Positions 39,568-57,911 are shown, counted from the first letter of the stretch. The stretch: DNA of 64,000 bases from a virus (IMGVR_UViG_3300042914_002215), one strand, 5' to 3'. The notes: generated by a model from the letters alone, not told the origin. Numbers and translations are program-made.

Positions 39568-39872
39568 GTGATATAAGATGTTTTACATTTAAAACACACC
39601 AAACTATTATTGGTGAAGTAGTGAGTCAAGGTGATGTGGGTTTTTCAATTAAAAATCCAGTTCAAGTAATTTCTGTGCCACCACGTTCAGCAAATGATCC
39701 TGGTGGTGTTGGATTTGCTCCTTATCTTGCTTTCGTTGAAGAGTTTGATAAAGGCATTGCTTTGAAATGGACAGATATTCTCACAAACAATACACCTGTT
39801 CCTGATCTATTGGAACAATATCGTAGAATGTTTAGCCGTATTGAACTAGCACCAGCAGGACTAAAACTTTAA
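39564..39872 (+). CDS. Conserved hypothetical protein upstream of DNA polymerase
   Basis: Coupled ORF; typical position. Confidence 0.6.
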   Translation: MSDIRCFTFKTHQTIIGEVVSQGDVGFSIKNPVQVISVPPRSANDPGGVGFAPYLAFVEEFDKGIALKWTDILTNNTPVPDLLEQYRRMFSRIELAPAGLKL

Positions 39873-42403: not shown

Positions 42404-43311
42404 TACATGTAATATTGCCATTTTTGACTGCCATTGCTTTATCGGGTATTGCTGCATATTACTCGGTGATTGGTCTTGCACAGATATTTCCAGGTTCATA
42501 CTGGCCCATCATCATCATGGGTTCTGTGCTTGAAGCAGCAAAATTGGTAACTGTATCGTGGGTATATAATCATTGGAAGTCAACATTCTCTGCACTCAAA
42601 CTTTATTTTCTCATTGCTGTAGTGCTGTTGATGGGCATCACTTCAATGGGAATCTTTGGTTATCTTTCAAAGGCACACATTGAACATTCAAGCACTGTAG
42701 CACCACAAGTAGCAAAGGTAGAAATCTATGAGGAAAAGATCAAAGTTATTCAATCGCAGATTGAGAGGAACAACAAGAATCTTAGTCAGTATGATGAGGC
42801 TGTCGATCAAGTTATGGTCAGGTCGAAGGATGAGAAAGGTGCCGAAAAGGCGAACCAAATACGTAAAGCCCAACAGAAAGACCGTGAGAGAATCATTGCA
42901 GAGACTAAGAGGCTACAAAAAGAGATACAGTTACTCACGGAAGAAAAACTTCCTCTATCCTTGGAAGTTCGCAAGGCTGAGTCGGATTTGGGGCCTATAA
43001 AATATGTTGCTGAAGTTGTATATGGCACACATGATCGTGACTTGATTGATAAAGCAGTTCGTTTGGTAATCTTTGTCATCATTGTGGTATTTGATCCGTT
43101 GGCAGTATTGTTGTTGATAGCAGCCAATCAAACATACCGCAGAATCAAAGAAGAGAAAGATGAACCTGAGCCAGTCAAAAAGGTAGCAAAGAAGAAAAAG
43201 ATTGACACACCACCAACAAATAGTTTAGAATCATTCTTTAGTGATGATAAACACACAGTAATACCAAAAGACAAAATCGCAAATATTGGAGAAATTGATG
43301 AGCGTACTTGA
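42400..43311 (+). CDS. Membrane protein with coiled-coil region
   Basis: Three N-terminal hydrophobic helices, coiled coil, VFDPLAVLLL helix. Confidence 0.65.
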   Translation: MIHVILPFLTAIALSGIAAYYSVIGLAQIFPGSYWPIIIMGSVLEAAKLVTVSWVYNHWKSTFSALKLYFLIAVVLLMGITSMGIFGYLSKAHIEHSSTVAPQVAKVEIYEEKIKVIQSQIERNNKNLSQYDEAVDQVMVRSKDEKGAEKANQIRKAQQKDRERIIAETKRLQKEIQLLTEEKLPLSLEVRKAESDLGPIKYVAEVVYGTHDRDLIDKAVRLVIFVIIVVFDPLAVLLLIAANQTYRRIKEEKDEPEPVKKVAKKKKIDTPPTNSLESFFSDDKHTVIPKDKIANIGEIDERT

Positions 43312-44359
43312 TAAACTGAAGAAAGCATCAACGATCAAAGAAACATCGGTGCTTTCTAAATCTAAGTTCTTTACAGAGAAAGACATGATTCAAACTGATG
43401 TGCCAATTGTGAATGTGGCACTATCAGGCAATCTTGATGGTGGTCTGACACCAGGATTGACGATGTTTGCGGGTCCATCGAAACACTTCAAAACCGCCTT
43501 TGCACTTTTGATGGCAAAATCATACATGAACAAGTATGATGATGCAGTTGTTTTGTTTTATGATTCAGAGTTTGGCACACCACAATCATACTTTGATGCT
43601 TTTGGTATTGATACTGAGCGTGTTCTACATACACCTATCACAGATGTTGAACAATTGAAACATGATATCATGAATCAATTACAGAACATTGAAAAGACTG
43701 ATAAAGTAATTATCATTCTTGACTCTATTGGTAATCTTGCATCAAAGAAAGAAGTTGAAGATTCAATTGAAGGCAAATCTGTTGCTGATATGAGCCGAGC
43801 AAAACAGATGAAGTCTTTGTTTCGTATGGTGACGCCACATCTGACAATCAAAGATATTCCTATGGTTGTTGTCAATCACACATACAAAGAGATTGGTTTG
43901 TATCCTAAAGATATTGTTGGTGGTGGCACAGGCTCATATTATTCAGCAGATACAATCTGGATTCTAGGTCGTCAACAAGACAAAGATGGTACAGAGATTG
44001 TCGGCTACAACTTCATCATCAATGTAGAAAAGAGTAGATATGTCAGAGAAAAATCCAAAATACCTGTTACTGTATCTTTTGACGGTGGTATCAACAAGTG
44101 GTCTGGTTTATTGGATATTGCACTCGAAGGCAATTTCGTCACTAAGCCAAGCAATGGTTGGTATGCCAAAGTAGATCAAGAAACTGGTGAAGTTCTTGAA
44201 AAGAAACGCTTTGCTGATACACAGACAGAAGAATTCTGGAAAGATATTCTTGCTGATGAACGTTTCAAAGAGTTTGTAAGGAAAAAATATGAAATCACTT
44301 ATAGCAGCATTATGGGACAAGATGTCGTTCAGGAAGAAGAAGTTGAAATATCAGATTAA
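43298..44359 (+). CDS. uvsX: RecA-like recombinase UvsX
   Basis: AGPSKHFKT, FYDSEFG, DSIGNLASKKE. Confidence 0.95.
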   Translation: MSVLDKLKKASTIKETSVLSKSKFFTEKDMIQTDVPIVNVALSGNLDGGLTPGLTMFAGPSKHFKTAFALLMAKSYMNKYDDAVVLFYDSEFGTPQSYFDAFGIDTERVLHTPITDVEQLKHDIMNQLQNIEKTDKVIIILDSIGNLASKKEVEDSIEGKSVADMSRAKQMKSLFRMVTPHLTIKDIPMVVVNHTYKEIGLYPKDIVGGGTGSYYSADTIWILGRQQDKDGTEIVGYNFIINVEKSRYVREKSKIPVTVSFDGGINKWSGLLDIALEGNFVTKPSNGWYAKVDQETGEVLEKKRFADTQTEEFWKDILADERFKEFVRKKYEITYSSIMGQDVVQEEEVEISD

Positions 44360-44654
44360 CGAAGATTTTCAATTTCTTCCATCTGATGATGACAAGATAA
44401 CTGGCATCGGCATACTGAAAGGAAAGTATGCTGGTGTTCTTTATCATTATGGCAAAGCAAGAGTGATAGAAGAGGGTGATTTTGCAAGATTAACTTTTGA
44501 CTATACTATCATTCACACACCCACATTCACCGTTCATGAGTTGCAAACTGATGAAGAATTTCATACAATGATAGGTGATATACTAACTGAAATACTCATG
44601 GAACAATCCGATGAAAAGACTCGAAACAATTATTCTGAAGAACTTGATATTTAA
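44289..44654 (+). CDS. Hypothetical protein (gp40 position)
   Basis: Between uvsX and gp41. Confidence 0.5.
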   Translation: MKSLIAALWDKMSFRKKKLKYQINEDFQFLPSDDDKITGIGILKGKYAGVLYHYGKARVIEEGDFARLTFDYTIIHTPTFTVHELQTDEEFHTMIGDILTEILMEQSDEKTRNNYSEELDI

Positions 44655-46014
44655 TGAAGAATATGCACGAAAAATTATTCCGTTTCTGAAAAACGAATAC
44701 TTCTCAGATACCACAGAGAAAAATCTTTTTGAGGAAATTAATAGTCACATCCACCAATTCAAACATCTTCCAACATACGAATCACTTGTAATAAACTTTA
44801 CTGAATCACGTAAACTGACAGAAGAGCAGGTCAGAAATGCTGTTGAAATGATTCGTGAAATCAACGCAGACAAAAATGATCCAACTGACGTAGACTGGCT
44901 CATCAAGCAAACTGAAAAGTTTTGCCAAGACAAAGCAATCTACAATGCCATCATGAAGTCTGTTAAGATTCTTGATGAAAGAGAAAACAAAGAAGATAAG
45001 GGTGTAATTCCAAAGTTGTTGAGTGATGCACTTGGTGTGTCATTTGACAGGTCTGTCGGTCATGATTATATTGATGACTCAGACAACCGATTTGAATTCT
45101 ATCATCGTCACGAAACAAAGATACCATTTGATCTTGACCTATTCAACAAGATTACAAAAGGCGGTCTGCCAAAGAAAACACTAAACATTGCACTTGCTGG
45201 TACTGGTGTTGGTAAGTCACTGTTCATGTGTCATGTTGCCGGTTCTTGTCTTGCACAAGGTCTGAATGTGTTGTACATCACGATGGAAATGGCAGAAGAA
45301 CGAATTGCCGAACGTATTGATGCCAATCTATTGAATATTGATATTGCAGACTTGAACTCTATCAGTAAACAAGACTATGATCGAAAGTTCTCCGCACTCA
45401 AAGTAAAGACGCATGGTAAACTGATCATCAAAGAATATCCAACAGCAGCAGCATCAGCACTCCACTTCAGAGCATTGTTAAACGAATTGCAACTAAAGAA
45501 AAGTTTTAAACCTGACATCATCTTTATTGACTATCTTAACATTTGTGCAAGTGCCAGAATCAAGCCTGGTGCTAACGTAAACAGTTATTCTTATATCAAG
45601 GCTATTGCCGAAGAATTGAGAGGTCTGGCCGTTGAGTTTGATGTTCCGATAGTCTCTGCTACTCAGACTACCAGAAGCGGCTTCACCAGCTCGGATCCAG
45701 GTTTGGAAGATACGTCAGAGTCGTTTGGTCTGCCAGCCACAGCAGATTTTATGTTTGCTTTGATAAGCACAGAAGAGTTGCAACAATTGAATCAGATAAT
45801 GATCAAACAACTCAAAAATCGTTACAATGATCCAAATTATTTCAAACGATTCGTTGTGGGTATTGACAGAGCCAAGATGAAATTGTATGATGTTGAACAG
45901 GGAGCACAAGATGATCTGGTAGATGCAGGTCAAGTGCCACCAGACAAGCCTTTGAATACCTTCGGTGAACGTGAAAGACAGTCGGGTAATAAGTTCGGAG
46001 GCTTCAAAGTATAA
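44611..46014 (+). CDS. gp41: Replicative DNA helicase
   Basis: AGTGVGKS, IFIDYLNI, ATQTTRSG, SESFGLPATAD, KQLKNRY. Confidence 0.96.
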   Translation: MKRLETIILKNLIFNEEYARKIIPFLKNEYFSDTTEKNLFEEINSHIHQFKHLPTYESLVINFTESRKLTEEQVRNAVEMIREINADKNDPTDVDWLIKQTEKFCQDKAIYNAIMKSVKILDERENKEDKGVIPKLLSDALGVSFDRSVGHDYIDDSDNRFEFYHRHETKIPFDLDLFNKITKGGLPKKTLNIALAGTGVGKSLFMCHVAGSCLAQGLNVLYITMEMAEERIAERIDANLLNIDIADLNSISKQDYDRKFSALKVKTHGKLIIKEYPTAAASALHFRALLNELQLKKSFKPDIIFIDYLNICASARIKPGANVNSYSYIKAIAEELRGLAVEFDVPIVSATQTTRSGFTSSDPGLEDTSESFGLPATADFMFALISTEELQQLNQIMIKQLKNRYNDPNYFKRFVVGIDRAKMKLYDVEQGAQDDLVDAGQVPPDKPLNTFGERERQSGNKFGGFKV

Positions 46015-46017
46015 ATA
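46010..46017 (+). promoter_or_regulatory. T4-type late promoter
   Basis: TATAAATA overlapping the gp41 stop. Confidence 0.8.
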
Positions 46018-46038: not shown

Positions 46039-46791
46039 ATGGCTGCACAACAGGGATTTCAGTATGAAAAAAATGCAGCAGCAGAGCTGAAAAAATTTGG
46101 TCTTGTTCCCAAAAGTTTCGTGCCAGCCGGTGCGGGTCATGATCAGCCCGACTTGTTACTAGAGTATAAGAAAAAAAAATCTGGTTGTGAGTTGAAGATT
46201 ACTGCCGCATCTGCTGGTTCTCTTGTCATGAAGTATGATATAAACGATAAGAAAAATCCATGGAAATTTGGTGATATCAAAGCAGATGATGATGAAAAAT
46301 TATTCATTCGTGATCTAGCATATGAAGTTGGACTTTTTGATATAATCAAAAAACAATGGAAAGATGTGCCATATAAAAGAGATAAAGATGCTAAGTGGGA
46401 AGCAACAGCAGGTAAACTAACACCACAGCAACGATATGAACGTGATAGAGATACCTTCAAAGATATTCGTGGAGAAATATCAGCAACGAAAATTGAAGAA
46501 TATTATAACAAAAAAGATACGTATTACGTGAATGTTGGTACTCACGGATTTTATTTGATGGGTATCAAAAATCCACTAAAACTCAAAGACGTGCCGATGT
46601 TTGGTAAGTCAGCAAAGGCAACATATCGTGCAAGAGTACAATACAAAGGCAGTGGCAATTATCAATTTACTTTTGAGATGCAGTTCTCAATACCAGCAAA
46701 TAAAAAATCACCATTCAATATAGCGCCAGTAAGTGGCAAGAATGTAAACATAATAAAAAAAGAAATCAATCTAAGCTGTTTCGACATATGA
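46039..46791 (+). CDS. Putative PD-(D/E)XK nuclease-fold protein
   Basis: GFQYE...PDLLL...GCELK. Confidence 0.5.
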   Translation: MAAQQGFQYEKNAAAELKKFGLVPKSFVPAGAGHDQPDLLLEYKKKKSGCELKITAASAGSLVMKYDINDKKNPWKFGDIKADDDEKLFIRDLAYEVGLFDIIKKQWKDVPYKRDKDAKWEATAGKLTPQQRYERDRDTFKDIRGEISATKIEEYYNKKDTYYVNVGTHGFYLMGIKNPLKLKDVPMFGKSAKATYRARVQYKGSGNYQFTFEMQFSIPANKKSPFNIAPVSGKNVNIIKKEINLSCFDI

Positions 46792-48011
46792 AATTCATGG
46801 ACTATCTAAAAGAGAGTAAAGAGGGCAAGAATGTTCATTTAGAACATCTTGAGGATAATGTATTAAACAATGGAGTTACAGGTGCACGTGAAGCAATAGA
46901 TTTTCTGCGTTCTTTACGTAACATGCTTGCAGGTCACACAGGCACAAAAATGAATGTGACTACAAAATGGGATGGTGCACCGGCAATCTTTGCTGGCACA
47001 AATCCAGAGAATGGTAAGTTTTTTGTTGGTACTAAATCAGTGTTTGCAAAAAATGCAAAATTGAATTATACTGATGAAGATATTGATGAAAATCATCCGA
47101 GTGAAGGACTCAATCAAAAACTAAAACTTGCATTAGCATTCTTACCTAAGTTAGGTATCAAAGGTGTTCTGCAAGGTGATATGATGTTCTCTAAAGGAGA
47201 TATCAAGCATGAGACAATCGATGGAGAAGATTATATCATCTTTCAACCAAATACAATCGTATATGCAGTCCCAACAAAATCAAAGTTGGCACAAGCAATG
47301 CTTGCTGCACAAATTGGCGTGGTATTCCATACATCATACTCTGGTAAAACACTTGAGACAATGAAAGCGTCATTTAACATTGATATTGGTCACTTGAAAA
47401 CTACCAAAGATGTTTGGTTTCGTGATGCATCATTCACTGACGCATCTGGTTCAGCTACATTCACCGAAGAAGAAACGGCCGAAATCACATCAATTCTTTC
47501 ACAAGCAGGTCGTGTATTTCAAACAATACCTGCACTGACATTGAATCGTGTTGCTGCATCTGATGTGTTTCTGACACAAATTAAAACGTTCAATAATACC
47601 AAAGTTCGTGAAGGTAAAAAGATTGCAGACACCAGAATTCATACACAAGAACTGATAAACTGGGTTGAAGCAAAACTAAACAAAGAAGTATTAGCCGCAA
47701 AGAAAGAAGATACAAAACAGAAACGTATCAAAGAGAAAAATGAAGTCATGCGTTTTTATCGTTCAAATGCAATCTATCTAAAACAAATATTTGATTTGAT
47801 GAATCTGATTGTTGATGCCAAGTTGATGATTATCCGTAAACTTGAAACAATTAGGAGCATCGGCACGTTTGTACGTACCGATGACGGTTTTCGTATTACG
47901 GCTCCCGAAGGGTTTGTTGCCGTTGATCACTTAGGCAAAGCATTGAAACTGGTAGATAGATTAGAATTCAGTCACAAAAACTTTACAGCACAGAAAGCGT
48001 GGGACAAATGA
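46788..48011 (+). CDS. Nucleic-acid-ligase-like protein with capsid-targeting-like leader
   Basis: MKFMDYLKE leader; TKWDG (KxDG motif I), LQGDMM, EGFVAV, LKLVD. Confidence 0.6.
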   Translation: MKFMDYLKESKEGKNVHLEHLEDNVLNNGVTGAREAIDFLRSLRNMLAGHTGTKMNVTTKWDGAPAIFAGTNPENGKFFVGTKSVFAKNAKLNYTDEDIDENHPSEGLNQKLKLALAFLPKLGIKGVLQGDMMFSKGDIKHETIDGEDYIIFQPNTIVYAVPTKSKLAQAMLAAQIGVVFHTSYSGKTLETMKASFNIDIGHLKTTKDVWFRDASFTDASGSATFTEEETAEITSILSQAGRVFQTIPALTLNRVAASDVFLTQIKTFNNTKVREGKKIADTRIHTQELINWVEAKLNKEVLAAKKEDTKQKRIKEKNEVMRFYRSNAIYLKQIFDLMNLIVDAKLMIIRKLETIRSIGTFVRTDDGFRITAPEGFVAVDHLGKALKLVDRLEFSHKNFTAQKAWDK

Positions 48012-48785: not shown

Positions 48786-49628
48786 ATGAAGGATTTGATA
48801 GTGGGTTGTGCGACCAATTATGATTGGTCAAAACTAAAATATTGGGTAAACTCAATCAACGCATCAGGATTTGAAGGTGATAAAGTCCTGATTCTTATGA
48901 ACTGCGACAAAGATACCGTACAAAAAGTAACTGACGCAGGCTTCTCAATCATAGCATTCAATCAAGATAAAGATGGTAATCTAACATATCAGTCACAACT
49001 GATGGTTCATGTTGAACGCTTCATTCACATTTATAAACTACTCAAAGATAATCTTTATCGTTATGTTATTACAACAGATGTAAAAGATGTTATCTTTCAA
49101 AAGAATCCATCTGAGTGGTTGGAACAAAATCTAGTTAAAGAAGAACATCTGGTATTTTCATCTGAGAGCATGAAATACAAAGATGAGCCGTGGGGACGTG
49201 AGAATCTAACACAGTGTTATGGTCAAAGCATCTACGAAGATTTCAAGAACAATACCATTTTCAATGTGGGTGTTCTTGCAGGTCGTGGTTATGCGATGAG
49301 AGATTTGGTATTACAATTATTCCTAAATTGTATCAATCGCCCAATTCCTATCGTTGATCAAGCGGTATTTAATGTAATGATTTCAAGACATCCTTATATT
49401 GAATCTTCAATGTATACCGCATCAGAAACAGGATGGGCATGTCAATTAGGTACAACGGCTGATCCAAGCAAGATTGATTCATTTAGACCACATCTATTAG
49501 AACCTTCACCGAAGATGGAAGGTGATAAAGTATTGACATCTACTGGAATTGAGTATACAATAGTACATCAATATGATCGTGTACCAGAATGGAAGAAAGT
49601 GATTGAGGCAAAATATGACGACAAATAG
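48786..49628 (+). CDS. GT-A-like glycosyltransferase
   Basis: YVITTDVKDVIFQKNP, NVGVLAG, DQAVFN, HQYDR. Confidence 0.6.
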   Translation: MKDLIVGCATNYDWSKLKYWVNSINASGFEGDKVLILMNCDKDTVQKVTDAGFSIIAFNQDKDGNLTYQSQLMVHVERFIHIYKLLKDNLYRYVITTDVKDVIFQKNPSEWLEQNLVKEEHLVFSSESMKYKDEPWGRENLTQCYGQSIYEDFKNNTIFNVGVLAGRGYAMRDLVLQLFLNCINRPIPIVDQAVFNVMISRHPYIESSMYTASETGWACQLGTTADPSKIDSFRPHLLEPSPKMEGDKVLTSTGIEYTIVHQYDRVPEWKKVIEAKYDDK

Positions 49629-50295
49629 AATAAAAGAACTGTTTTGGGAATTAGATAAACCATCTACAAAATGGTCAGGTTACTTTGATGTTTATGAACG
49701 ACATCTGAAAAAGTTTGTGGGTAAAGCACCACGCATACTTGAAATTGGTGTGCTTGGCGGTGGTTCAATTGAACTATGGCTAAAGTATTTTGGACCAGGC
49801 ACCTCTGTTGTTGCCGTTGATATCAATGAAGAGTGTTTGAAATATGAATACAACGGTGATGTCAAAATTGTGATGGGTAATCAAGGTGATCCTGTATTTT
49901 GGGATGACTTTCTTGCGACACAAAACAAATTTGATATTGTCATTGATGATGGTTCACATGTAATGAATCATCAGATTACAACACTTAACAAAGTATTTCC
50001 ACACATCAAAGAGGGTGGAGTATTCATCTGTGAAGATACACACACAAGTTATTGGCCACAGCCATGGGGTGGTGTGTTCCGTGGTGCAGGTACATTCTTA
50101 GAGCATTCTAAACGTGTGACAGATATTCTCAATCAACAACACTTTCAGGGCGCACCGATTGCAGATGATGTTCTAAACACATATCATAATCTGCATTCAG
50201 TAGCATTTTACAATAGCATGGTTGTGATGGAAAAAGAAGAATTGAAAACATTTGGTATCACAGACAATAAAGCAAACGTAGGAAGAGAACTATGA
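49615..50295 (+). CDS. Class I SAM-dependent (sugar O-) methyltransferase
   Basis: ILEIGVLGGGS, DIVIDDGSH, GGVFICEDTHTSYW. Confidence 0.85.
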   Translation: MTTNRIKELFWELDKPSTKWSGYFDVYERHLKKFVGKAPRILEIGVLGGGSIELWLKYFGPGTSVVAVDINEECLKYEYNGDVKIVMGNQGDPVFWDDFLATQNKFDIVIDDGSHVMNHQITTLNKVFPHIKEGGVFICEDTHTSYWPQPWGGVFRGAGTFLEHSKRVTDILNQQHFQGAPIADDVLNTYHNLHSVAFYNSMVVMEKEELKTFGITDNKANVGREL

Positions 50296-51005
50296 AAATA
50301 GCACTGTGTATCTCCGGTCAACCACGTATGTGGGAAAAAGGTTTTGAGTATCACAATACAAACATCATCAAAGGTAATGATGTAACTGTATTTCTACATT
50401 CGTGGGAAATGCCAGCAGAACAAATGCAGCAGATTTCAGAAAAGTATCAAGCAAAGAGTTTCATCACATCACCAAATCCTACGATTGATTTATCAAAATA
50501 CACCAACACACCACCACCATCACCAAACTGGAAAGTCAAAGATGGTCGTATGTCAACGTGGGCACAAATGTATGCAATTTATGAATGTATGCGTACAAAA
50601 CGTGAGTATGAAGAATATCATAATATGAAGTTTGATTGGGTCGTTCGTTCACGATTTGACTTTGCAATCAACATTCGTATACCGTTTGATACGCTGAATC
50701 CAAATAAACTGTACATACCAAACTGTCGTATGTCACTCAATCGTGACTTTGGTAATGATCAGTTTGCATTCTCATCATCAGAAAACATGGACAAGTATTC
50801 GTATGCTTATCAGCACTACGATGAGTTTTATAAACAAGGTGTGCAGTTCATGATGGAAGATTTCATGAGTGCAAACTGGAAAAAGTATGGTCTTGTTGGT
50901 GATAATCTTGTGTACTGTGATGTCAATCACCCATTCTCACCAGGTGAATATAATGGCACATGGCACTCACTTTTACGAAATGACATGGAAGAATGGCTGA
51001 AATAA
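50292..51005 (+). CDS. Putative glycosyltransferase-like protein
   Basis: KIALCISGQPR, FDWVVRSRFD, NDQFA. Confidence 0.55.
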   Translation: MKIALCISGQPRMWEKGFEYHNTNIIKGNDVTVFLHSWEMPAEQMQQISEKYQAKSFITSPNPTIDLSKYTNTPPPSPNWKVKDGRMSTWAQMYAIYECMRTKREYEEYHNMKFDWVVRSRFDFAINIRIPFDTLNPNKLYIPNCRMSLNRDFGNDQFAFSSSENMDKYSYAYQHYDEFYKQGVQFMMEDFMSANWKKYGLVGDNLVYCDVNHPFSPGEYNGTWHSLLRNDMEEWLK

Positions 51006-51721
51006 ATCTTGTTATCTGTATGGCGGGTTATAACACACGCTTTCACGATGTTGGCTTTGATATTCCAAAGTATCTGTTACCTTGGAATGGTAAGACAATC
51101 ATTCATGATATTCTAAAGAATCTACACAAAGATTGTCATGTTCTTCTTGTTGCTAACAAGCGTGACATTTATTTTCAAGATCAACTTCTTGAAACGATTG
51201 AACCTTTTGGTTTGAATGAAAGAAACATTCTGTACATTGGCGACACAAGAGGTCAGGCACATACAGCAGCAATCGGTATTGGTCATCTGTATCATCCAGA
51301 CTTACCAACTTTTATTCACAATGGAGATACGATTGTAACTGATCGTAATTTGAAATTGATGAGTGAAATGCTTGCTGATCCTTATCTTGCTTATGTTGAT
51401 GTGTTTGTGGGCAATTCACCAAAGTATTCTTATGTTCGTATGTTTGAGGAAACTGTGGTAGAGATTGTAGAGAAAAAACAAATATCACCATATGCATCAT
51501 CAGGACTCTATGGATTTGAATCTGGCACAAAGTATCTTGAATATTACGATAAACTTCAATCTACAGATGAACTTTATATTTCAAATGTAATTCAAAATAT
51601 GATTGCAGATGGCAAATCTGTGTTCACAAATGGTTTATCAAATAAACAAGAAACAATTGTGTTAGGCAGCCCACAAGAATACGGTATTGAGTTAGCAAGA
51701 CAAACATTAGGTGCAAAATGA
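50993..51721 (+). CDS. Sugar-phosphate nucleotidyltransferase
   Basis: ICMAGYNTRF...PKYLL, TRGQAHT, HNGD, EKK.IS..ASSGLY. Confidence 0.8.
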   Translation: MAEINLVICMAGYNTRFHDVGFDIPKYLLPWNGKTIIHDILKNLHKDCHVLLVANKRDIYFQDQLLETIEPFGLNERNILYIGDTRGQAHTAAIGIGHLYHPDLPTFIHNGDTIVTDRNLKLMSEMLADPYLAYVDVFVGNSPKYSYVRMFEETVVEIVEKKQISPYASSGLYGFESGTKYLEYYDKLQSTDELYISNVIQNMIADGKSVFTNGLSNKQETIVLGSPQEYGIELARQTLGAK

Positions 51722-52686
51722 CTATAGTTATTCCATTGAAAGGTGGTTCTCTAAGTAAAACTTACAGATTACCACAATATGATATAGTTCGTAAAGAAGT
51801 ATCACGTACAGAAAATCGTGAGTATGGTTTTATGCGTTGGTATTCTCAGTTGATGAAACTACAACACTTCAATCAGATTTATCCAGGTCTGTTTGCAGAA
51901 GTTGTTGCTGTTGGCTCTACTGGTGTTGATGCATGGTTTGATTTGAAATATCTTCATGGTTTCCGTGACATCAAATCTATTCTCAGTGGTGAACCACTCA
52001 AAGAAGAAACAATATTCAAAATCAGCAAAGCAGTATGGAAAGGTTTGAACACAGTTCACTCTGTTGGTAGAACACCAATACCTGGCGCACCATCACTTTA
52101 CTTCCGTGAAGAGATACATCAAAAGTTAATGGATGCATTGAAGATACCAGCATTTGATGATTTCTTTAGAAAAGGTAGTTATTGGTTGAACAGTAGACCA
52201 GTCACGGGTCTTACTGGCACATTAGCAATTCATGGACCAATTCATGAATTCTTTTCACATCTTGAGAATGATGATGAGTGTAATATTCATGGCAATCCTA
52301 CATTAGAAAACATCATGTATTCTTTTGATGAAGATCGTGTTGTATTCATTGACACGTATGAAGAAAGTATGTGGAATACAAAATATCTTGATTATGCACA
52401 AGTTCTTCAGTGCTCACGTAGTCATTATGGTTTTATTAATGATCGTGATGTTCGTGTGGTTGAAACTGATTTCATGAATCCAAACACAATACCGAAGAAC
52501 TTTGAAATCTTCAATGAGCACTTCGTGGCTGAACTGCCAAAAGATAAAATGAAACTCATAGATATATTAGAAGCATCACAGTTTATTCGTATGCTTCCAT
52601 TTAAGTTGATTGCTGGCGACATCAACAAAGCAAAATATTTTTATGTACATGCATCCAAATTGTTTCATGAGGCTTTAGATGAGTGA
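51718..52686 (+). CDS. APH/choline-kinase-like phosphotransferase
   Basis: LKGGS glycine loop, IHGNPTLENIM, FIDT. Confidence 0.65.
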   Translation: MTIVIPLKGGSLSKTYRLPQYDIVRKEVSRTENREYGFMRWYSQLMKLQHFNQIYPGLFAEVVAVGSTGVDAWFDLKYLHGFRDIKSILSGEPLKEETIFKISKAVWKGLNTVHSVGRTPIPGAPSLYFREEIHQKLMDALKIPAFDDFFRKGSYWLNSRPVTGLTGTLAIHGPIHEFFSHLENDDECNIHGNPTLENIMYSFDEDRVVFIDTYEESMWNTKYLDYAQVLQCSRSHYGFINDRDVRVVETDFMNPNTIPKNFEIFNEHFVAELPKDKMKLIDILEASQFIRMLPFKLIAGDINKAKYFYVHASKLFHEALDE

Positions 52687-53815
52687 TGAGTTTATGATGG
52701 ACTATGACAAGTTCAAACGAACTTGGAAAGTAAAAACAGAACTACCAGTAGAATTCAAACTAACATATTCGGCTGATATATTCAATCCGAGTAATCAAGA
52801 CATAGCAAATCTTTCCGAAAGCAATCGTAGAATCATTGTGATTGATACTGAGGTATGGAATCTATACAAAGATAAGATTGATGCATACTTCGGTGCAACA
52901 AAACTTGAATCACAAATACTGATTATTGATTGCAAGGAAGAAAATAAGAACTGGAAGAACGCCGATGAAATTGTTACATTCTTTGAGAAACAAGGAGTCC
53001 TTCGTCGTGAGAAGATTATTGCGATTGGCGGTGGTGTCCTTCTGGACATTGTTGGTTTTGCTTGTAGCATTTATCGCCGTGGAATACCATATATCAAAAT
53101 CCCTACAACACTTCTTGCAATTGTTGATGCCTCTGTAGGTTCAAAAGTAGCAGTCAATCATCTTGGTCGTCGTAATAGAATCGGCGCATACTATCCACCA
53201 GAAGCAACATTCATTGACAAAAAGTTTATTGCAACACAAAGTGAACGTGAGATTGTCAATGGTATTGCAGAGATATTCAAACTTGCAGTCATCAAGTCAC
53301 CAGAACTTTTTAAGTTACTTGAAGAAAACGCAGAGATGTTGATTGAAGAAAAGTTTCAACATGGTGCAGTGCCAGTTCGTGTAATCAATCTTGCTATCAC
53401 AGACATGATAGAAGAACTCGGCCCTAATCTGTGGGAGAAACGATTAGATCGTTGTGTAGATTTTGGTCACACATTCAGTCCAGTGATTGAGATGGCAAAC
53501 ATACCAAACCTATTGCATGGTGAAGCAGTAGCACTTGATTGTTTACTCAGTTCATGTATCGCATTCAGCAGAACATACATTGGCTCAGATGAACTCAAAA
53601 GAATATTTGATGTAGCAAAACGATTGAAACTCAAAACATTCCATCCAGACTTTACAAACATGAAGATGTTGAAGGAAAGTTTGGGTGATGCAACAAAACA
53701 CCGTAACGGTAATCAGTTTGCACCATTGCCAATTCACATTGGTAATTACAAGATTGTAAATGATATCACAGATGAAGATATACAATATGGTATTGCTATT
53801 TTTGAGGAGATGTGA
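52679..53815 (+). CDS. Sedoheptulose 7-phosphate cyclase, 2-epi-5-epi-valiolone synthase type
   Basis: DHQS-fold GGGVLLD/PTTLLAIVDAS plus EEVS-type MIEELGPNLWE..LDRCVDFGHTFSP and HRNG. Confidence 0.82.
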   Translation: MSDEFMMDYDKFKRTWKVKTELPVEFKLTYSADIFNPSNQDIANLSESNRRIIVIDTEVWNLYKDKIDAYFGATKLESQILIIDCKEENKNWKNADEIVTFFEKQGVLRREKIIAIGGGVLLDIVGFACSIYRRGIPYIKIPTTLLAIVDASVGSKVAVNHLGRRNRIGAYYPPEATFIDKKFIATQSEREIVNGIAEIFKLAVIKSPELFKLLEENAEMLIEEKFQHGAVPVRVINLAITDMIEELGPNLWEKRLDRCVDFGHTFSPVIEMANIPNLLHGEAVALDCLLSSCIAFSRTYIGSDELKRIFDVAKRLKLKTFHPDFTNMKMLKESLGDATKHRNGNQFAPLPIHIGNYKIVNDITDEDIQYGIAIFEEM

Positions 53816-54480
53816 TGCGTAAAGTTGCTGTTGTCACTGGTTGCAGTTATGGTCTTGGCTTTGAAATAGCAGATAGACTTATTGACGAAGGCTATTTTGT
53901 CTGCGGTCTATCACGTTCACAACCCCCAATGAAATTGTTTTCTGCTCCTGATACATTTCAATGGATAGAATGTGATGTATCAAATGCAGAAGAAGTGAAG
54001 TTGGCATTTGAAAAGATGGGCGTGTTCATTGATGTGCTAGTCAATAATGCTGGTGTGTTTGAGTATGGTGAGTTTTCTTCTCAGTCAATTAAAACGATTG
54101 ATAAAATTATTGATATCAATGTCAAGGGCACGATGTATGTGACTAAAGCAGCACAGAAATATTTGTCACGTGGTTCAAATGTTTTCTTTATCAACTCTGT
54201 TGCTGGTTTGTACGAGATAAAGAATGAAGCAATCTATGCAGCATCAAAACATGCTCTCACAGCATTTGCTGGTATTCTTGGTGAAGAACTTCGTAATGAT
54301 GGAATTAGAGTGACTAGCATTCATCCTGGCGGTATTGATACGCCAATGCAAAGAACAAATCCAATCAAAAAAGAATTACTTCAACCGACAGAGATATCAA
54401 ATCTAATCGTAAATGTAATCAATTCTAAAGCAACATATAAAACAATCAAACTATTTCCTGAATCAGAATGGCATCAATAA
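53812..54480 (+). CDS. SDR-family oxidoreductase
   Basis: TGCSYGLG, NNAG, YAASK, PGGIDT. Confidence 0.9.
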   Translation: MMRKVAVVTGCSYGLGFEIADRLIDEGYFVCGLSRSQPPMKLFSAPDTFQWIECDVSNAEEVKLAFEKMGVFIDVLVNNAGVFEYGEFSSQSIKTIDKIIDINVKGTMYVTKAAQKYLSRGSNVFFINSVAGLYEIKNEAIYAASKHALTAFAGILGEELRNDGIRVTSIHPGGIDTPMQRTNPIKKELLQPTEISNLIVNVINSKATYKTIKLFPESEWHQ

Positions 54481-55178
54481 TTCCAACTCAGCAGTTGTTC
54501 ATCGTAACATCTGCACTCAATCCAAGAATGGGTGTTATTAGTCGTGAAGATAGACTTCAACAAACAATTGATGGTCTAAAGTCATTACGTGAAAAATGTC
54601 CAGATGCAATTGTCATACTTGCGGAAGGCTCACCAGATAAAGTTGAAGAAGAGAAAATAAAAGAACTGGCAGATTATGTTGATATGGTAGCAGATTTCTC
54701 TGGTAATAGAGATATTTCACAGTTTGCATCAGTAGGCAAAAAGAGTGAAGCAGAGAATGTGCTCATGCTCAAAATGATGATGTTGTTGAAACAAGAGCCA
54801 AGTTTAATGAAACTTCGTCATTCAGTAAGTCGCATTTACAAACTATCGGGACGAACAATAATCAATGATGGTTTTGATATCAATGATCATAATCGGTTTG
54901 GTAAATATGTGTTCAAGAAACGTATGCCAACATGGCTACAAGGTGAACGTGCCGAGATTTTTACAGATTTGTTGATTACCAGATTATTCTCATTCTGCCC
55001 AAGTCTGATTGATGATTACATGATAGTATGTCAAAGAAACATAGGCGTGGTCAACGATGCTGGTATTGACACCGAACACGCTCACTTTTTCAATATAAAT
55101 CCAAATTACCTCATAGAACTTGACGATATTCACTGCCAGGGCATCATGGCAGGCACAGGAGCCACGGAAATCTACTAA
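54468..55178 (+). CDS. Hypothetical glycosyltransferase-like protein
   Basis: FIVTSAL, RLQQT, RIYKLSGR; within glycan island. Confidence 0.45.
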   Translation: MASIIPTQQLFIVTSALNPRMGVISREDRLQQTIDGLKSLREKCPDAIVILAEGSPDKVEEEKIKELADYVDMVADFSGNRDISQFASVGKKSEAENVLMLKMMMLLKQEPSLMKLRHSVSRIYKLSGRTIINDGFDINDHNRFGKYVFKKRMPTWLQGERAEIFTDLLITRLFSFCPSLIDDYMIVCQRNIGVVNDAGIDTEHAHFFNINPNYLIELDDIHCQGIMAGTGATEIY

Positions 55179-55220: not shown

Positions 55221-57911
55221 ATGAAATTTAGAGATTTTCTACGTGAACAGAAGGAAAAACATGCCGTCCTGGCTTTTGGACGCATGAATCCAATCACAAA
55301 TGGTCACGAAAAATTAGTCAATAAAGTCAAAGAAATTGCCGATAAAGTCGGTGGTTCACATCACATCGTCCTGTCACATTCGCAGGACGCAAAGAAAAAT
55401 CCCCTTACAGCAGATCAAAAAGTCAAACATGCCAGCAGAGCATTTCCTGGCACAAACTTCAAAGCAGCGTCTAAAGACAAACCAACTTTCTTTGATCATG
55501 CAGAAGAACTGCACAAGAAAGGTGTAACACATCTGCACATGGTAGGTGGTTCTGATCGTACAGAAGAATATCACAGACTGCTGCACAAATATAATGGCAC
55601 ACATGAAGGTGCTCGTTTCAACTTCAAAAAAATTACAGTACACTCTGCTGGCGAACGTGATCCAGATGCAGAAGGTGTAACTGGTATCTCAGCATCAAAG
55701 ATGCGTGAACATGCAAAGAATGGCGATTTGAATTCATTCAAGCAAGGTGCACCATCATCAATGTCACATGCACATGTCAAACAAATGTACAACGATGTCC
55801 GTAAGGGCATGAGATTGCACGAAGAAATCATTCGTGAAGGTGTACATGACAAAGGTATTTTCAAAGCAGTATTCTTAGGCGGTGGTCCTGGCTCAGGTAA
55901 AGATTACGTTCTATCAAATACATTAGATGGTCACGGTCTTGTTGAGATCAATTCAGACAAAGCACTTGAATATTTGATGGACAAAGAAAATCTGGACAAG
56001 AAGATGCCAGATAGTGAAGAGAAACAACGTAATGAAGTTCGTAAACGTGCAAAGAATATTACAGAGTTGCGTCAACGTTTAGCCCTTCATGGTCGTAATG
56101 GTCTTATCATCAATGGTACTGGTGATGATCCTGAGAAATACATGAAGATCAAAGAGATGCTTGAGAAACTTGGCTACGACACACATATGGTTATGGTAAA
56201 CACCAAAGATGAAGTTTCTAAGGCAAGAAATATAGAACGTGGTCAACGTGGTGGTCGTACAGTGCCAGAGGATATTCGTAGAGAAAAATGGGAAGCAGTA
56301 CAACAAGCAAGACCACAGTTTGCAAAGATGTTTCGTGATAACTATGTTGAGTTTGATAACTCAGCAGATTTGCGTGAAGCACCACCAGAACTTGTTGATG
56401 CTAAGAAAAAAGAAATGGAAAATATCTACAAACGTATTCAAAAGTTTGTAGGTCAACCGCCAAAAGCAGATCAAGCAAAAGGTTGGATTGCAACAGAATT
56501 AGGTAAGAAAGATACAGCACCGATTCGTCGTGATACAAAGCCACACGATGCTGCTGGCACACATGATCAAATGAATACGATGGGTCTAGAGTATTATGGT
56601 TTTGGTCGTTACGGCAAAGATGGCAAAGTAACTCATCGTTCAGTACATGGTTCACTTGTGCCAGTAGAGAAGATTGCAAAAACTGTAGAGACACATCAAA
56701 AGAAAATGCAAAAGATGAATGAGGCAGTCACAGTCTCAATCACTGGCGATACAGTAGAAGAAGTAACACGCACAATCAAGTTTTTGAAAACAGATGATGA
56801 AGTAGAAATGGCAGAGGAAGAAGAAGTAAATACAATGTCCGATCCTGGTGCATACAATTTACTCACACTCGGTCATGGCATGATCAAAGAAGATTTACGT
56901 CAATGGTTTGATCCAAAACATCCAAAGGGTGGATGGAAACGTATCAACAGTAAAGGTGAAGCGATTGGTCCTTGTGCCCGTGAGCCAGGTGAAGCAAAAC
57001 CAAAATGCATGTCAAATGAAAAACGTGCATCACTATCCAAGAAAGAACGTGCTTCAGCAGTCGCAGCAAAACGCCGTCACGATCCAAATCCAGAACGTCA
57101 AGGTAAACCGATCAATGTATCAAGTTTTGGTAAAGGTAAAATAAGTGAAGCGGCATATGAGGGCAATATTGGCATGATGGAAGTCATGAAGTTTCATCAG
57201 AAGGCAACTGACGAGCAGAAAAAACAATTCAAGAAACACATGGCAGATAAGAATCATAAAGAAGCATGGAAGTTAGTTCAACACGTATCGGGTACAAAAC
57301 TTGTTGGTAAACAATTTGAAGAAACAGAAAAGAAACAAAAACTAATGACTGACAATAAAGGTAAACCAAGAGTGTTTCACTTTAGAATGTCAGCAGCAAA
57401 AGAAGCGCACCGTAATGGTGGCACTGTAGCAAAAGTTGGAAACAAATATGTTGTCAAACTAAAAGAGGACTTAGATGAAGTTTATACACCAAGTGATTCT
57501 ACAATTGAAATCCATTATGGACAGAATAGTTCCACCCCTTCCGCAAAAGAATTGGGAAAGGTTAGAACCAACACTGGAAGAAAAGAAAGACCCAGTGCAG
57601 ACAAACCCGTTGCCGAAGCAAGAAGAACCATCACCCTCAACACAATCAAAGAAAACTTCCAGAAGAAAGTCCAAGAGTCAATTGACAAAGGAATAGAACC
57701 TGGTATTTCTATGGCTGGTGCTGGTGAGTCTCCTGCACGTGACATGGGTGAGAAGTTGAGCAAGAAAGGTAAAGCAACACAAGTTGTGCCTAAGAGAATT
57801 GATGAGTTGACTGGCGATACAACAACAGCAAGCATCGGTGATCAAAAAGAAGATGAGTTGAAGAAAAAAGGTATCTCACTAACTACATTCAAAAAGAGAA
57901 ACTACGTATGA
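55221..57911 (+). CDS. Multidomain putative head-packaged polyprotein: HIGH-type nucleotidyltransferase, P-loop kinase, small modules
   Basis: MKFRDFLRE leader; FGRMNPITNGH and ISASKMR; GGPGSGK; modules bounded by IRE, MNE, IKE, ISE, LKE, VQE, IDE. Confidence 0.7.
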   Translation: MKFRDFLREQKEKHAVLAFGRMNPITNGHEKLVNKVKEIADKVGGSHHIVLSHSQDAKKNPLTADQKVKHASRAFPGTNFKAASKDKPTFFDHAEELHKKGVTHLHMVGGSDRTEEYHRLLHKYNGTHEGARFNFKKITVHSAGERDPDAEGVTGISASKMREHAKNGDLNSFKQGAPSSMSHAHVKQMYNDVRKGMRLHEEIIREGVHDKGIFKAVFLGGGPGSGKDYVLSNTLDGHGLVEINSDKALEYLMDKENLDKKMPDSEEKQRNEVRKRAKNITELRQRLALHGRNGLIINGTGDDPEKYMKIKEMLEKLGYDTHMVMVNTKDEVSKARNIERGQRGGRTVPEDIRREKWEAVQQARPQFAKMFRDNYVEFDNSADLREAPPELVDAKKKEMENIYKRIQKFVGQPPKADQAKGWIATELGKKDTAPIRRDTKPHDAAGTHDQMNTMGLEYYGFGRYGKDGKVTHRSVHGSLVPVEKIAKTVETHQKKMQKMNEAVTVSITGDTVEEVTRTIKFLKTDDEVEMAEEEEVNTMSDPGAYNLLTLGHGMIKEDLRQWFDPKHPKGGWKRINSKGEAIGPCAREPGEAKPKCMSNEKRASLSKKERASAVAAKRRHDPNPERQGKPINVSSFGKGKISEAAYEGNIGMMEVMKFHQKATDEQKKQFKKHMADKNHKEAWKLVQHVSGTKLVGKQFEETEKKQKLMTDNKGKPRVFHFRMSAAKEAHRNGGTVAKVGNKYVVKLKEDLDEVYTPSDSTIEIHYGQNSSTPSAKELGKVRTNTGRKERPSADKPVAEARRTITLNTIKENFQKKVQESIDKGIEPGISMAGAGESPARDMGEKLSKKGKATQVVPKRIDELTGDTTTASIGDQKEDELKKKGISLTTFKKRNYV

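Follow-up and report, generated by a model that had tools for sequence, protein, structure and literature searches.

We analysed a window of 64,000 nucleotides from an uncultured aquatic T4-like phage (IMGVR_UViG_3300042914_002215). Adjoining its T4-like core genes, at positions 48786-55178, lies a cluster of eight plus-strand open reading frames (ORFs), here called A to H, whose neighbours overlap by 4-26 nt. In this cluster A, B, C and H are a constant frame, and D to G are a swappable module built around a predicted cyclase of the EEVS type (synthase of 2-epi-5-epi-valiolone). We propose that D-G is probably a self-contained, horizontally mobile module that would convert sedoheptulose 7-phosphate (S7P) of the host into a nucleotide-activated C7 cyclitol, a carbasugar; we infer every chemical step of this conversion. 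The module and its genes are:

50993..54480, + strand: exchangeable four-gene module D-E-F-G, delimited by breaks in DNA homology to the related locus L190
50993..51721, + strand: D, sugar-1-phosphate-type nucleotidyltransferase, first gene of the module (PF00483 NTP_transferase, 3.4e-10)
51718..52686, + strand: E, kinase-like protein of the protein-kinase/APH fold with HGN replacing HxD (family alignment and profile)
52679..53815, + strand: F, predicted EEVS-type sedoheptulose-7-phosphate cyclase (Pfam, PDB comparison, site signature and tree)
53812..54480, + strand: G, classical short-chain dehydrogenase/reductase (SDR), presumed ketocyclitol reductase, last gene of the module (adh_short, 2.4e-41)

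An original prediction, made from the window alone, had described eight overlapping genes here, and ORF coordinates, family matches, synteny and substitution rates confirm this. We found the same eight genes in the same order in about 30 uncultured viral contigs of IMG/VR, and the ratio of non-synonymous to synonymous substitution rates (dN/dS), taken against three orthologous loci, was 0.02-0.27 for every gene. The cluster is therefore not a product of chance, and purifying selection acts on all eight genes. Conservation across phage metagenomes had been suggested as a check on the prediction, and the neighbours of the cyclase accompany it both in these viral contigs and in 20 of 80 cellular loci described below. 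The base composition of the cluster is that of the rest of the window.

To see how the island varies, we gathered its relatives by searching viral contigs with the DUF6267 protein encoded upstream of the cluster. All eight genes are present in most close relatives. In nine loci A is retained, usually together with B, C or H, and other content stands in place of D-G, including:

L129 and L190 (flanks 92-97% identical to those of the window): APH-family kinase, nucleotidyltransferase-HAD fusion, and NDP-sugar 4,6-dehydratase/epimerase
L186 and L196 (L194 alike by tblastn): APH-family kinase and nucleotidyltransferase-HAD fusion
L200 (L201 alike by tblastn): dehydratase, sugar C-methyltransferase, HAD protein, PfkB-type kinase, and fusion of a nucleotidyltransferase with an RpiB-type isomerase
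L203: epimerase and UDP-glucose-dehydrogenase-like protein

Between the window and L190, DNA homology extends up to the stop codon of C, is then lost, and returns at the start of H. These break points fall exactly at gene borders, which makes D-G a single unit of exchange within a hypervariable glycan island. The idea that all eight genes form one dedicated pathway accordingly had to be given up: D-G are swapped as a unit and A, B, C and H stay. A and B are both kept in cyclase-free loci (B in L129, L190 and L186), and since B persists where the cyclitol module has been replaced, the methyltransferase that it encodes is not cyclitol-specific. Exchange also reaches into the module, as a comparison of window positions 50292-55178 with locus L003 (IMGVR_UViG_3300032050_005595) illustrates: protein identity is 98% for C, 68% for D, 65% for E, 90% for F, 66% for G and 83% for H, a mosaic from which we conclude that recombination also cuts inside the four genes. 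A distant phage lineage (L029 and L030) has the nucleotidyltransferase, kinase, cyclase and SDR in another genomic context, adjoining a methyltransferase and genes that resemble the glycosyltransferase (GT) families GT8, GT2 and GT29.

The cassette of L200 (7066-14235) encodes an NDP-sugar dehydratase, a Methyltransf_14 protein, a HAD phosphatase, a PfkB-type kinase and the fusion of a nucleotidyltransferase with an RpiB/LacAB isomerase; it resembles a route for activating a heptose-type sugar, and such a route, too, would have a sugar phosphate of the pentose phosphate pathway as its starting point. We considered the cyclitol as a carba-analogue of the heptose of such alternative cassettes and dropped the idea; C7 cyclitols mimic hexoses or heptuloses.

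The predicted cyclase and its partner enzymes

F matches the N-terminal domain of DHQ_synthase (PF01761, 2.1e-36) and the C-terminal domain PF24621 (1.4e-19), and has the two-domain fold of 3-dehydroquinate synthase (DHQS) with its NAD+ and metal sites. E198, H264 and H280 of F, which align with the metal ligands, are invariant in 27 relatives and in every row of the 20-site comparison described below. When we compared F to the PDB with phmmer, ValA ranked first (4p53, 295 bits, E 5.8e-87), followed at lower scores by the Anabaena DDGS (5tpr, 217 bits), DHQS (at most 137 bits) and DOIS (90 bits). Both motifs on which the original prediction had rested its EEVS assignment, MIEELGPNLWE and VDFGHTFSP, are present in F. 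More generally, F and ValA have PNLWE, VDFGH.FSP and KHR.G in common, whereas DDGS has PNLHE, IAYGHTWSP and TLTRDG. F also carries an active-site fingerprint that sets EEVS apart from DDGS and DHQS: 20 metal- and substrate-site positions, which were picked with the help of alignments and not from the published 14-site EEVS fingerprint, read RDKNEKNLWERDHFSPEHHR in all phage, module-linked cellular and actinobacterial EEVS-like cyclases. The housekeeping AroB proteins from five of the same genomes differ at the known discriminating sites, with N at the site of D261 and G-H at the sites of S267-P268 of F.

In a maximum-likelihood tree rooted on AroB, the proteins with the EEVS signature were grouped (Shimodaira-Hasegawa-like approximate likelihood-ratio test, SH-aLRT, 99), and within this group the phage cyclases share a clade (SH-aLRT 97) with nearly all kinase-adjacent cyclases; this clade sits apart from, and beside, the actinobacterial one. 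The phylogeny that had been suggested as a check thus separates the EEVS-signature group from AroB, but it places the phage proteins in a clade of their own next to the actinobacterial cyclases, in a tree drawn without reference sequences of ValA, AcbC, EVS, EboD and DDGS. Taken together, the ValA match, the 20-site signature and the tree support the predicted assignment to the EEVS type and not to DHQS or DDGS. Judged from its sequence, F is of the EEVS type and belongs to a sub-family of its own, with a product that we predict from this kinship.

The kinase-like protein E is the least conventional member of the module. The protein of the window had no family match in searches of the Pfam, NCBIfam and PHROG libraries, and its orthologues match Pfam APH weakly (L108 at 1.5e-4, L030 at 8.5e-3). 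The profile of the E family, searched against the PDB, best matched the JH2 pseudokinase domain of JAK2 at 'IHGN' (E 0.005) and also, weakly, matched APH(2'')-Id (E 0.13). Among 23 sequences, down to 29% identity, the residues K8-G-G-S, K26, E35, G192, E197-N198 and D212 are invariant, and the motif order (LKGGSLS, K26, E35, HGNxTLEN, D212 in FIDxYE) is that of protein kinases and APH, with the glycine-rich loop, the beta3 lysine and the Mg-binding aspartate in place. The original prediction of a kinase therefore holds for the motif pattern and not for the catalytic loop, in which HGN lacks the canonical catalytic aspartate. Because the other catalytic residues are strongly conserved and the pairing with the nucleotidyltransferase is fixed, our best guess is a putative phosphotransfer role for E.

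D contains the motifs MAGYNTRF and PKYLLP and co-occurs with E and F in cellular genomes; its matches to models of the archaeal GlmU N-domain, RmlA and MurU are weak and all far under the cut-offs. In G, the TGxxxGxG-like, NNAG and YAASK motifs are intact. The predicted coupling of the cyclase to a reductase, a kinase-like protein and a nucleotidyltransferase is thus borne out, and by analogy it would follow the same logic as the route to GDP-valienol in acarbose biosynthesis.

Cellular relatives of the module and the genes of the frame

To ask whether the module is confined to phages, we searched one genome per prokaryotic species with a cyclase profile, which returned more than 600 matching stretches, and inspected 80 loci. 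In 20 of these, E and D have homologues no more than a few kb from the cyclase, and 14 of the 20 also have one of G. Kinase, cyclase, reductase and nucleotidyltransferase are adjacent in Polynucleobacter, Balneolaceae, Myxococcota, Desulfobulbaceae, Fibrobacteria, Woesearchaeota, a gammaproteobacterial metagenome-assembled genome (MAG), Magnetovibrionaceae and single-cell genomes of Prochlorococcus. The commonest cellular order is kinase, cyclase, reductase, nucleotidyltransferase. The phage order with G downstream occurs in the gammaproteobacterial MAG (L034, cyclase 62% identical) and in a near-identical short contig (L035); L036 and two Prochlorococcus loci (L039 and L040) start with nucleotidyltransferase, kinase and cyclase and are without a match to G. 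In two of these an aldo-keto reductase follows the cyclase (9206-10258 in L036, from Magnetovibrionaceae; 5981-7060 in L039, a Prochlorococcus single-cell genome), and we take this replacement by a non-homologous reductase to argue that ketoreduction follows cyclisation. The genes around the module in cells are:

Polynucleobacter sp. 80A-SIGWE: ManC, GT2, Wzz, ABC-type ATPase, GT9-like protein, GDP-mannose dehydratase (GMD) and DegT
Balneolaceae MAG: ABC exporter, formyltransferase, methyltransferases, DegT, DUF7796 homologue, GT2 and GT1
Woesearchaeote: Wzx-type flippase
Desulfobulbaceae MAG: GT1 and Wzz
L036: GT61
L039: FkbM methyltransferase, GT9-like protein and CMP-sugar-type cytidylyltransferase

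The module is thus not phage-specific but is part of cellular surface-polysaccharide loci in several phyla. Among 151 Polynucleobacter species genomes the module kinase has one strong and one weak match, a sporadic distribution that resembles that of variable O-antigen or capsule genes. As the cellular copies L034 and L035 are placed among those of phages in the tree, transfer may have run in either direction. L034 lies on a 262-kb contig of the gammaproteobacterial MAG and L035 on a 4-kb contig binned as 'Candidatus Caenarcanales', and their near-identical cyclases have branches of 0.003 and 0.07, so that one contig or the other has probably been binned wrongly.

The four genes that stay when the module is exchanged are:

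48786..49628, + strand: A, 280-aa GT-like protein (phrog_1579 glycosyltransferase, 2.5e-6)
49603..50295, + strand: B, S-adenosylmethionine-dependent methyltransferase of the Methyltransf_24 type (PF13578, 1.2e-5; phrog_21658, 7.7e-20)
50292..51005, + strand: C, DUF7796 protein with a GT-A fold in its model (DUF7796, 26.7 bits against a cut-off of 27)
54468..55178, + strand: H, 236-aa protein whose model has a GT-A / nucleotide-diphospho-sugar-transferase fold (structure comparison)

A matched nothing in Pfam and no PDB sequence, either as a single sequence or as a profile; its T-D-V-x-D (DxD-like) motif is invariant in seven orthologues, down to 41% identity. B, whose true start is possibly the ATG at 49615, contains the motifs ILEIGVLGGGS and IDDGSH, and its counterpart in L196 also matches TylF. 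For C, the AlphaFold (AF2) model (mean predicted local distance difference test score, pLDDT, 80.1) retrieved GT6/GT-A chains with Foldseek (E about 1e-5) and aligned by VIA-align to the fucosyltransferase WrtF over 161 residues (Z 11.7, root-mean-square deviation (rmsd) 3.3); a homologue (26%) lies directly 5' of the module kinase in the Balneolaceae MAG. H is without a family match in the Pfam, NCBIfam and PHROG searches; its AF2 model (pLDDT 82.8) retrieved glycogenin and GT6 with Foldseek (E about 3e-6) and aligned by VIA to alpha-1,3-GalT over 196 residues (Z 12.6, rmsd 3.9). Both models show the Rossmann-like fold of GT-A enzymes, with hundreds of GT-A chains at Z of at least 8. In the ESM Atlas, C retrieved only viral hypothetical or DUF7796 clusters, and H, apart from viral hypothetical clusters, just a weak lead to WavE. 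A phmmer search of PDB sequences gave nothing significant for A, C, E or H, and hhalign detected no homology between A and H or between C and H, which are therefore not paralogues by sequence. GT-like proteins thus do flank the cyclase genes as predicted (A by phrog_1579, C and H by their GT-A models). No membrane segments are evident in them, and neither a flippase nor a polymerase is found in the cluster.

Proposed pathway and its alternatives

We propose that F would cyclise S7P to a 2-epi-5-epi-valiolone-type ketocyclitol, as its homology and active-site identity suggest. G would then reduce the ring ketone, in keeping with its intact SDR motifs and with the aldo-keto reductases found in other lineages. 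E, with its atypical HGN loop, would phosphorylate the cyclitol, for which the simplest site is the hydroxyl at C1, the new pseudo-anomeric position, and D would couple the cyclitol phosphate to a nucleoside monophosphate to give an NDP-cyclitol. The cyclitol would then be added, by a frame transferase or an enzyme of the host, to a glycan that A, C, H and B may assemble and tailor, B possibly by methylation, and that would take the cyclitol as a residue or a cap. A complete sibling genome of 172,439 bp with terminal repeats, whose cyclase is 97-98% identical, contains no transaldolase gene, and thus no phage-encoded supply of S7P of that kind.

Several points weigh against this pathway. Position 193 of E is N in 22 of 23 sequences (HGD occurs in L041 only), so that the HxD...N catalytic loop is not present, and its best profile match in the PDB is a pseudokinase. 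The sub-clade of the phage and module-linked cyclases is distinct from the actinobacterial one, we know of no characterised member of it, and subtle changes suffice for EEVS, EVS and DDGS to differ in product. A saturated carbasugar is a poor glycosyl donor, since it has no ring oxygen to stabilise the transition state, and the known pseudoglycosyltransferases are GT-B enzymes that use the allylic GDP-valienol, whereas C and H are GT-A in their models. C and H also occur, at 81% and 84% identity, with a different donor module, and the cyclitol transferase may be none of A, C and H. The fold of H, finally, is tied with those of KdsB (Z 12.2) and an NDP-sugar pyrophosphorylase (12.1), and a nucleotidyltransferase role for H is, from the model, conceivable.

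As a saturated donor is awkward for glycosyl transfer, a serious alternative is that the NDP-cyclitol (for example a CDP-cyclitol) is a phospho-alcohol donor, from which cyclitol phosphate is passed to a glycan in phosphodiester linkage, as with CDP-glycerol, CDP-ribitol, CDP-choline and CDP-inositol. Phosphodiester transfer does without an oxocarbenium ion, whereas a saturated carbasugar makes a bad glycosyl donor. LicA/LicC and AmgK/MurU likewise combine a kinase of the APH fold and a small NTP_transferase, D matches MurU weakly, and module loci hold Wzz or ABC-transporter genes, a setting in which chain-terminating caps are known. We nevertheless consider this reading unlikely, given that family searches recognised no LicD, TagF or Stealth-type phosphotransferase in the cluster, that C and H are modelled as GT-A folds, and that there is no sign that the nucleotide is CTP. 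A weaker case can be made for a free small molecule, for example an osmolyte, a sunscreen akin to gadusol, or an inhibitor of glycosidases like those of the validamycin/valienol type. Every EEVS product that has been characterised is either a secondary metabolite or a sunscreen (PMC12904256; PMC4426668), and an SDR and a methyltransferase near the cyclase recall the gadusol MT-Ox. However, the methyltransferase remains when the cyclase is swapped out, the cyclase is coupled to a nucleotidyltransferase and a kinase-like protein, the module in cells is set in polysaccharide loci, and family searches of the cluster found no aminotransferase, ATP-grasp or MT-Ox-type partner, which makes this outcome improbable. 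We give a similarly low probability to E being a pseudokinase, or a kinase-fold enzyme of another activity, with a different route of activation. The HGN in 22 of 23 sequences, the JAK2 match and the lack of a Pfam match above threshold for the protein of the window would fit; the invariance of the glycine-rich loop, beta3 lysine, E-N and Mg-binding aspartate down to 29% identity would be unexpected in a dead enzyme, and the fixed nucleotidyltransferase partner needs a phosphate ester as substrate, which implies a phosphotransfer step.

The nature of the acceptor bears on a further alternative, namely that the pseudo-sugar hypermodifies phage DNA, as glucosyl- and arabinosyl-hydroxymethylcytosine do in T-even phages. 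The cluster comes just after the replication genes gp43, UvsX and gp41, its GT-A-fold proteins are soluble and without membrane segments, and swaps of sugar type between related phages recall the diversity of T-even DNA sugars. In the sibling genome, however, we found neither a ThyA-family hydroxymethylase nor a C5 DNA methylase, and the cellular homologues of the module sit in surface-glycan loci; a search of the sibling genome for TET/JBP proteins found none but is uninformative, its control being silent in every genome. As no route to a hydroxymethyl-pyrimidine is in sight, DNA glycosylation is unlikely, and we regard hypermodification by the pseudo-sugar as very improbable, so that DNA, one of the targets first suggested, recedes. 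It is hardly credible that F is an ordinary DHQS, carried as an auxiliary gene for aromatic amino acids, even though DHQ_synthase in Pfam and aroB in NCBIfam are its top family names and JGI labels many orthologues 3-dehydroquinate synthase: it scores 218.8 with aroB, for which the cut-off is 305, the DHQS entries of the PDB score under half of ValA, the N and G-H of AroB are D and S-P in F, and no further shikimate gene lies nearby.

For the proposed NDP-cyclitol, a virion protein is about as plausible an acceptor as a glycan of the host envelope. The original prediction had favoured the virion on account of an upstream late promoter, for which we found little ground. The sole T4-type late-promoter match upstream of the cluster is:

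46010..46017, + strand: TATAAATA

This match lies 2.8 kb 5' of the cluster with four ORFs in between, and the window contains three such sites where 3.05 are expected by chance. The three sites (9088, 11644 and 46010) are all 5' of ORF starts, at distances of 23 nt, 22 nt and, for one, about 200 nt, and may be real late promoters despite the chance count. Scans of sigma-70 promoters and terminators gave results at chance level.

More tentatively, it is possible, though on balance doubtful, that carbasugars are genuine building blocks of glycoconjugates, activated by a minimal four-enzyme route that supplies surface-polysaccharide assembly with an NDP-C7-cyclitol in many bacterial and archaeal phyla, and that abundant aquatic T4-like phages captured this route and place a non-hydrolysable sugar mimic on the envelope of the infected cell or on their own virions. 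If so, the mimic might resist glycan-cleaving enzymes or block receptor recognition by competing phages. If the product is the one to which the genes point, a carbocyclic pseudo-sugar would join the repertoire of glycan building blocks, the question would arise how a GT-A enzyme or a phosphotransferase uses a donor without a ring oxygen, and the island would be a new case of phages exchanging 'serotype' cassettes. The presence of the module in an apparent isolate, Polynucleobacter sp. 80A-SIGWE, makes the idea directly testable.

Known systems and the phage surroundings

C7 cyclitols of the EEVS type are known from acarbose, validamycin and kirkamide, which are antibiotics and inhibitors, and from gadusol, a sunscreen. 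In acarbose biosynthesis, AcbU acts as cyclitol 1-kinase, followed in sequence by AcbR/VldB as nucleotidyltransferase and AcbS as pseudoglycosyltransferase (PMC9200736). The route proposed here is similar in that an EEVS-type cyclase would act on S7P and a reduced, C1-phosphorylated and nucleotidylated cyclitol would go to a transferase; we liken E to AcbU and D to AcbR/VldB by their putative roles. It differs in that only four enzyme functions, cyclase included, are coupled, in phages and cells alike. The ROK-type 7-kinase, epimerase, dehydratase, HAD phosphatase, phosphomutase and aminotransferase of acarbose and validamycin biosynthesis were not found in the cluster, so that the donor made by the phage would be saturated and not an allylic valienol. 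Unlike the GT-B enzymes VldE and AcbS, C and H are small proteins of GT-A fold in their models and A has a DxD-type motif, and no GT-B family match was found in the cluster. The setting differs as well, being a phage glycan island or cellular polysaccharide loci instead of an antibiotic cluster. Adjacent genes for a kinase-fold protein and an NTP_transferase, with a free alcohol or sugar as substrate, are shared with AmgK/MurU and LicA/LicC, whereas the substrate here would be a C7 polyol, carbocyclic and produced in situ, and the loop is HGN, not HxD. The gadusol pathway of vertebrates and algae likewise has an EEVS-type cyclase near a methyltransferase and an oxidoreductase (PMC4426668); in the phage, the methyltransferase is a frame gene, the partners of the cyclase are instead a kinase-like protein and a nucleotidyltransferase, and there is no fused MT-Ox.

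Among phages, the closest parallel is with the islands of pelagimyophages and cyanomyophages, where lipopolysaccharide-related sugar-nucleotide and GT genes occupy a hypervariable region that separates the replication module from the structural one (PMC7029224). The island studied here resembles them in its T4-like genome, its sugar-nucleotide and GT genes and a content that varies between close relatives. The described islands instead have rfaE, UDP-glucose dehydrogenase and mostly GT8-type enzymes, and no cyclase or cyclitol is mentioned for them (PMC7029224); the putative role proposed for them is a change of the host O-chain against co-infection (PMC7029224). In the literature searched we found no paper linking EEVS or valiolone to phages and none joining cyclitols, sedoheptulose and O-antigens, and viruses go unmentioned in a cyclitol review of 2026 (PMC12904256). 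In the genomes studied here the cyclase is tied to a minimal activation route, both in cellular surface-glycan loci of several phyla and in a swappable glycan island that belongs to a widespread group of uncultured phages.

The cluster is likewise absent from deposited phages, which agrees with the earlier remark that such a pathway was not known to have been described in them. Its DNA had no blastn match in 50,697 deposited phage genomes, and a tblastn search of the same genomes with the cyclase returned only AroB-like matches of about 29% identity; several of these sit in bacterium-named records or short fragments, which suggests that they are host DNA. Metagenomes, in contrast, hold hundreds of close cyclase variants, on contigs of up to 184 kb. 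The DNA polymerase of the window shares about 51% identity with its counterparts in cyanomyophages and uncultured marine viruses, and the genes upstream of the cluster are:

39872-42403: family-B DNA polymerase (gp43)
43286-44359: UvsX
44611-46014: gp41-type helicase
46788-48011: DUF6267 gene, which lies with three small ORFs between the helicase and the cluster

The sibling genome (L204, G001) encodes a further GT2-family glycosyltransferase at 50709-51083, far from the island. Downstream of the cluster, the window encodes a protein of 896 aa (55221-57911) with an N-terminal cytidylyltransferase-like domain (phrog_3041, 7e-64; PF01467) and, after it, a Zeta-toxin/AAA_33 P-loop kinase domain, a NadR-like arrangement. 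The family phrog_455 unites DUF6267 and the cytidylyltransferase of this protein, and the two genes that flank the island are therefore fused in other phages.

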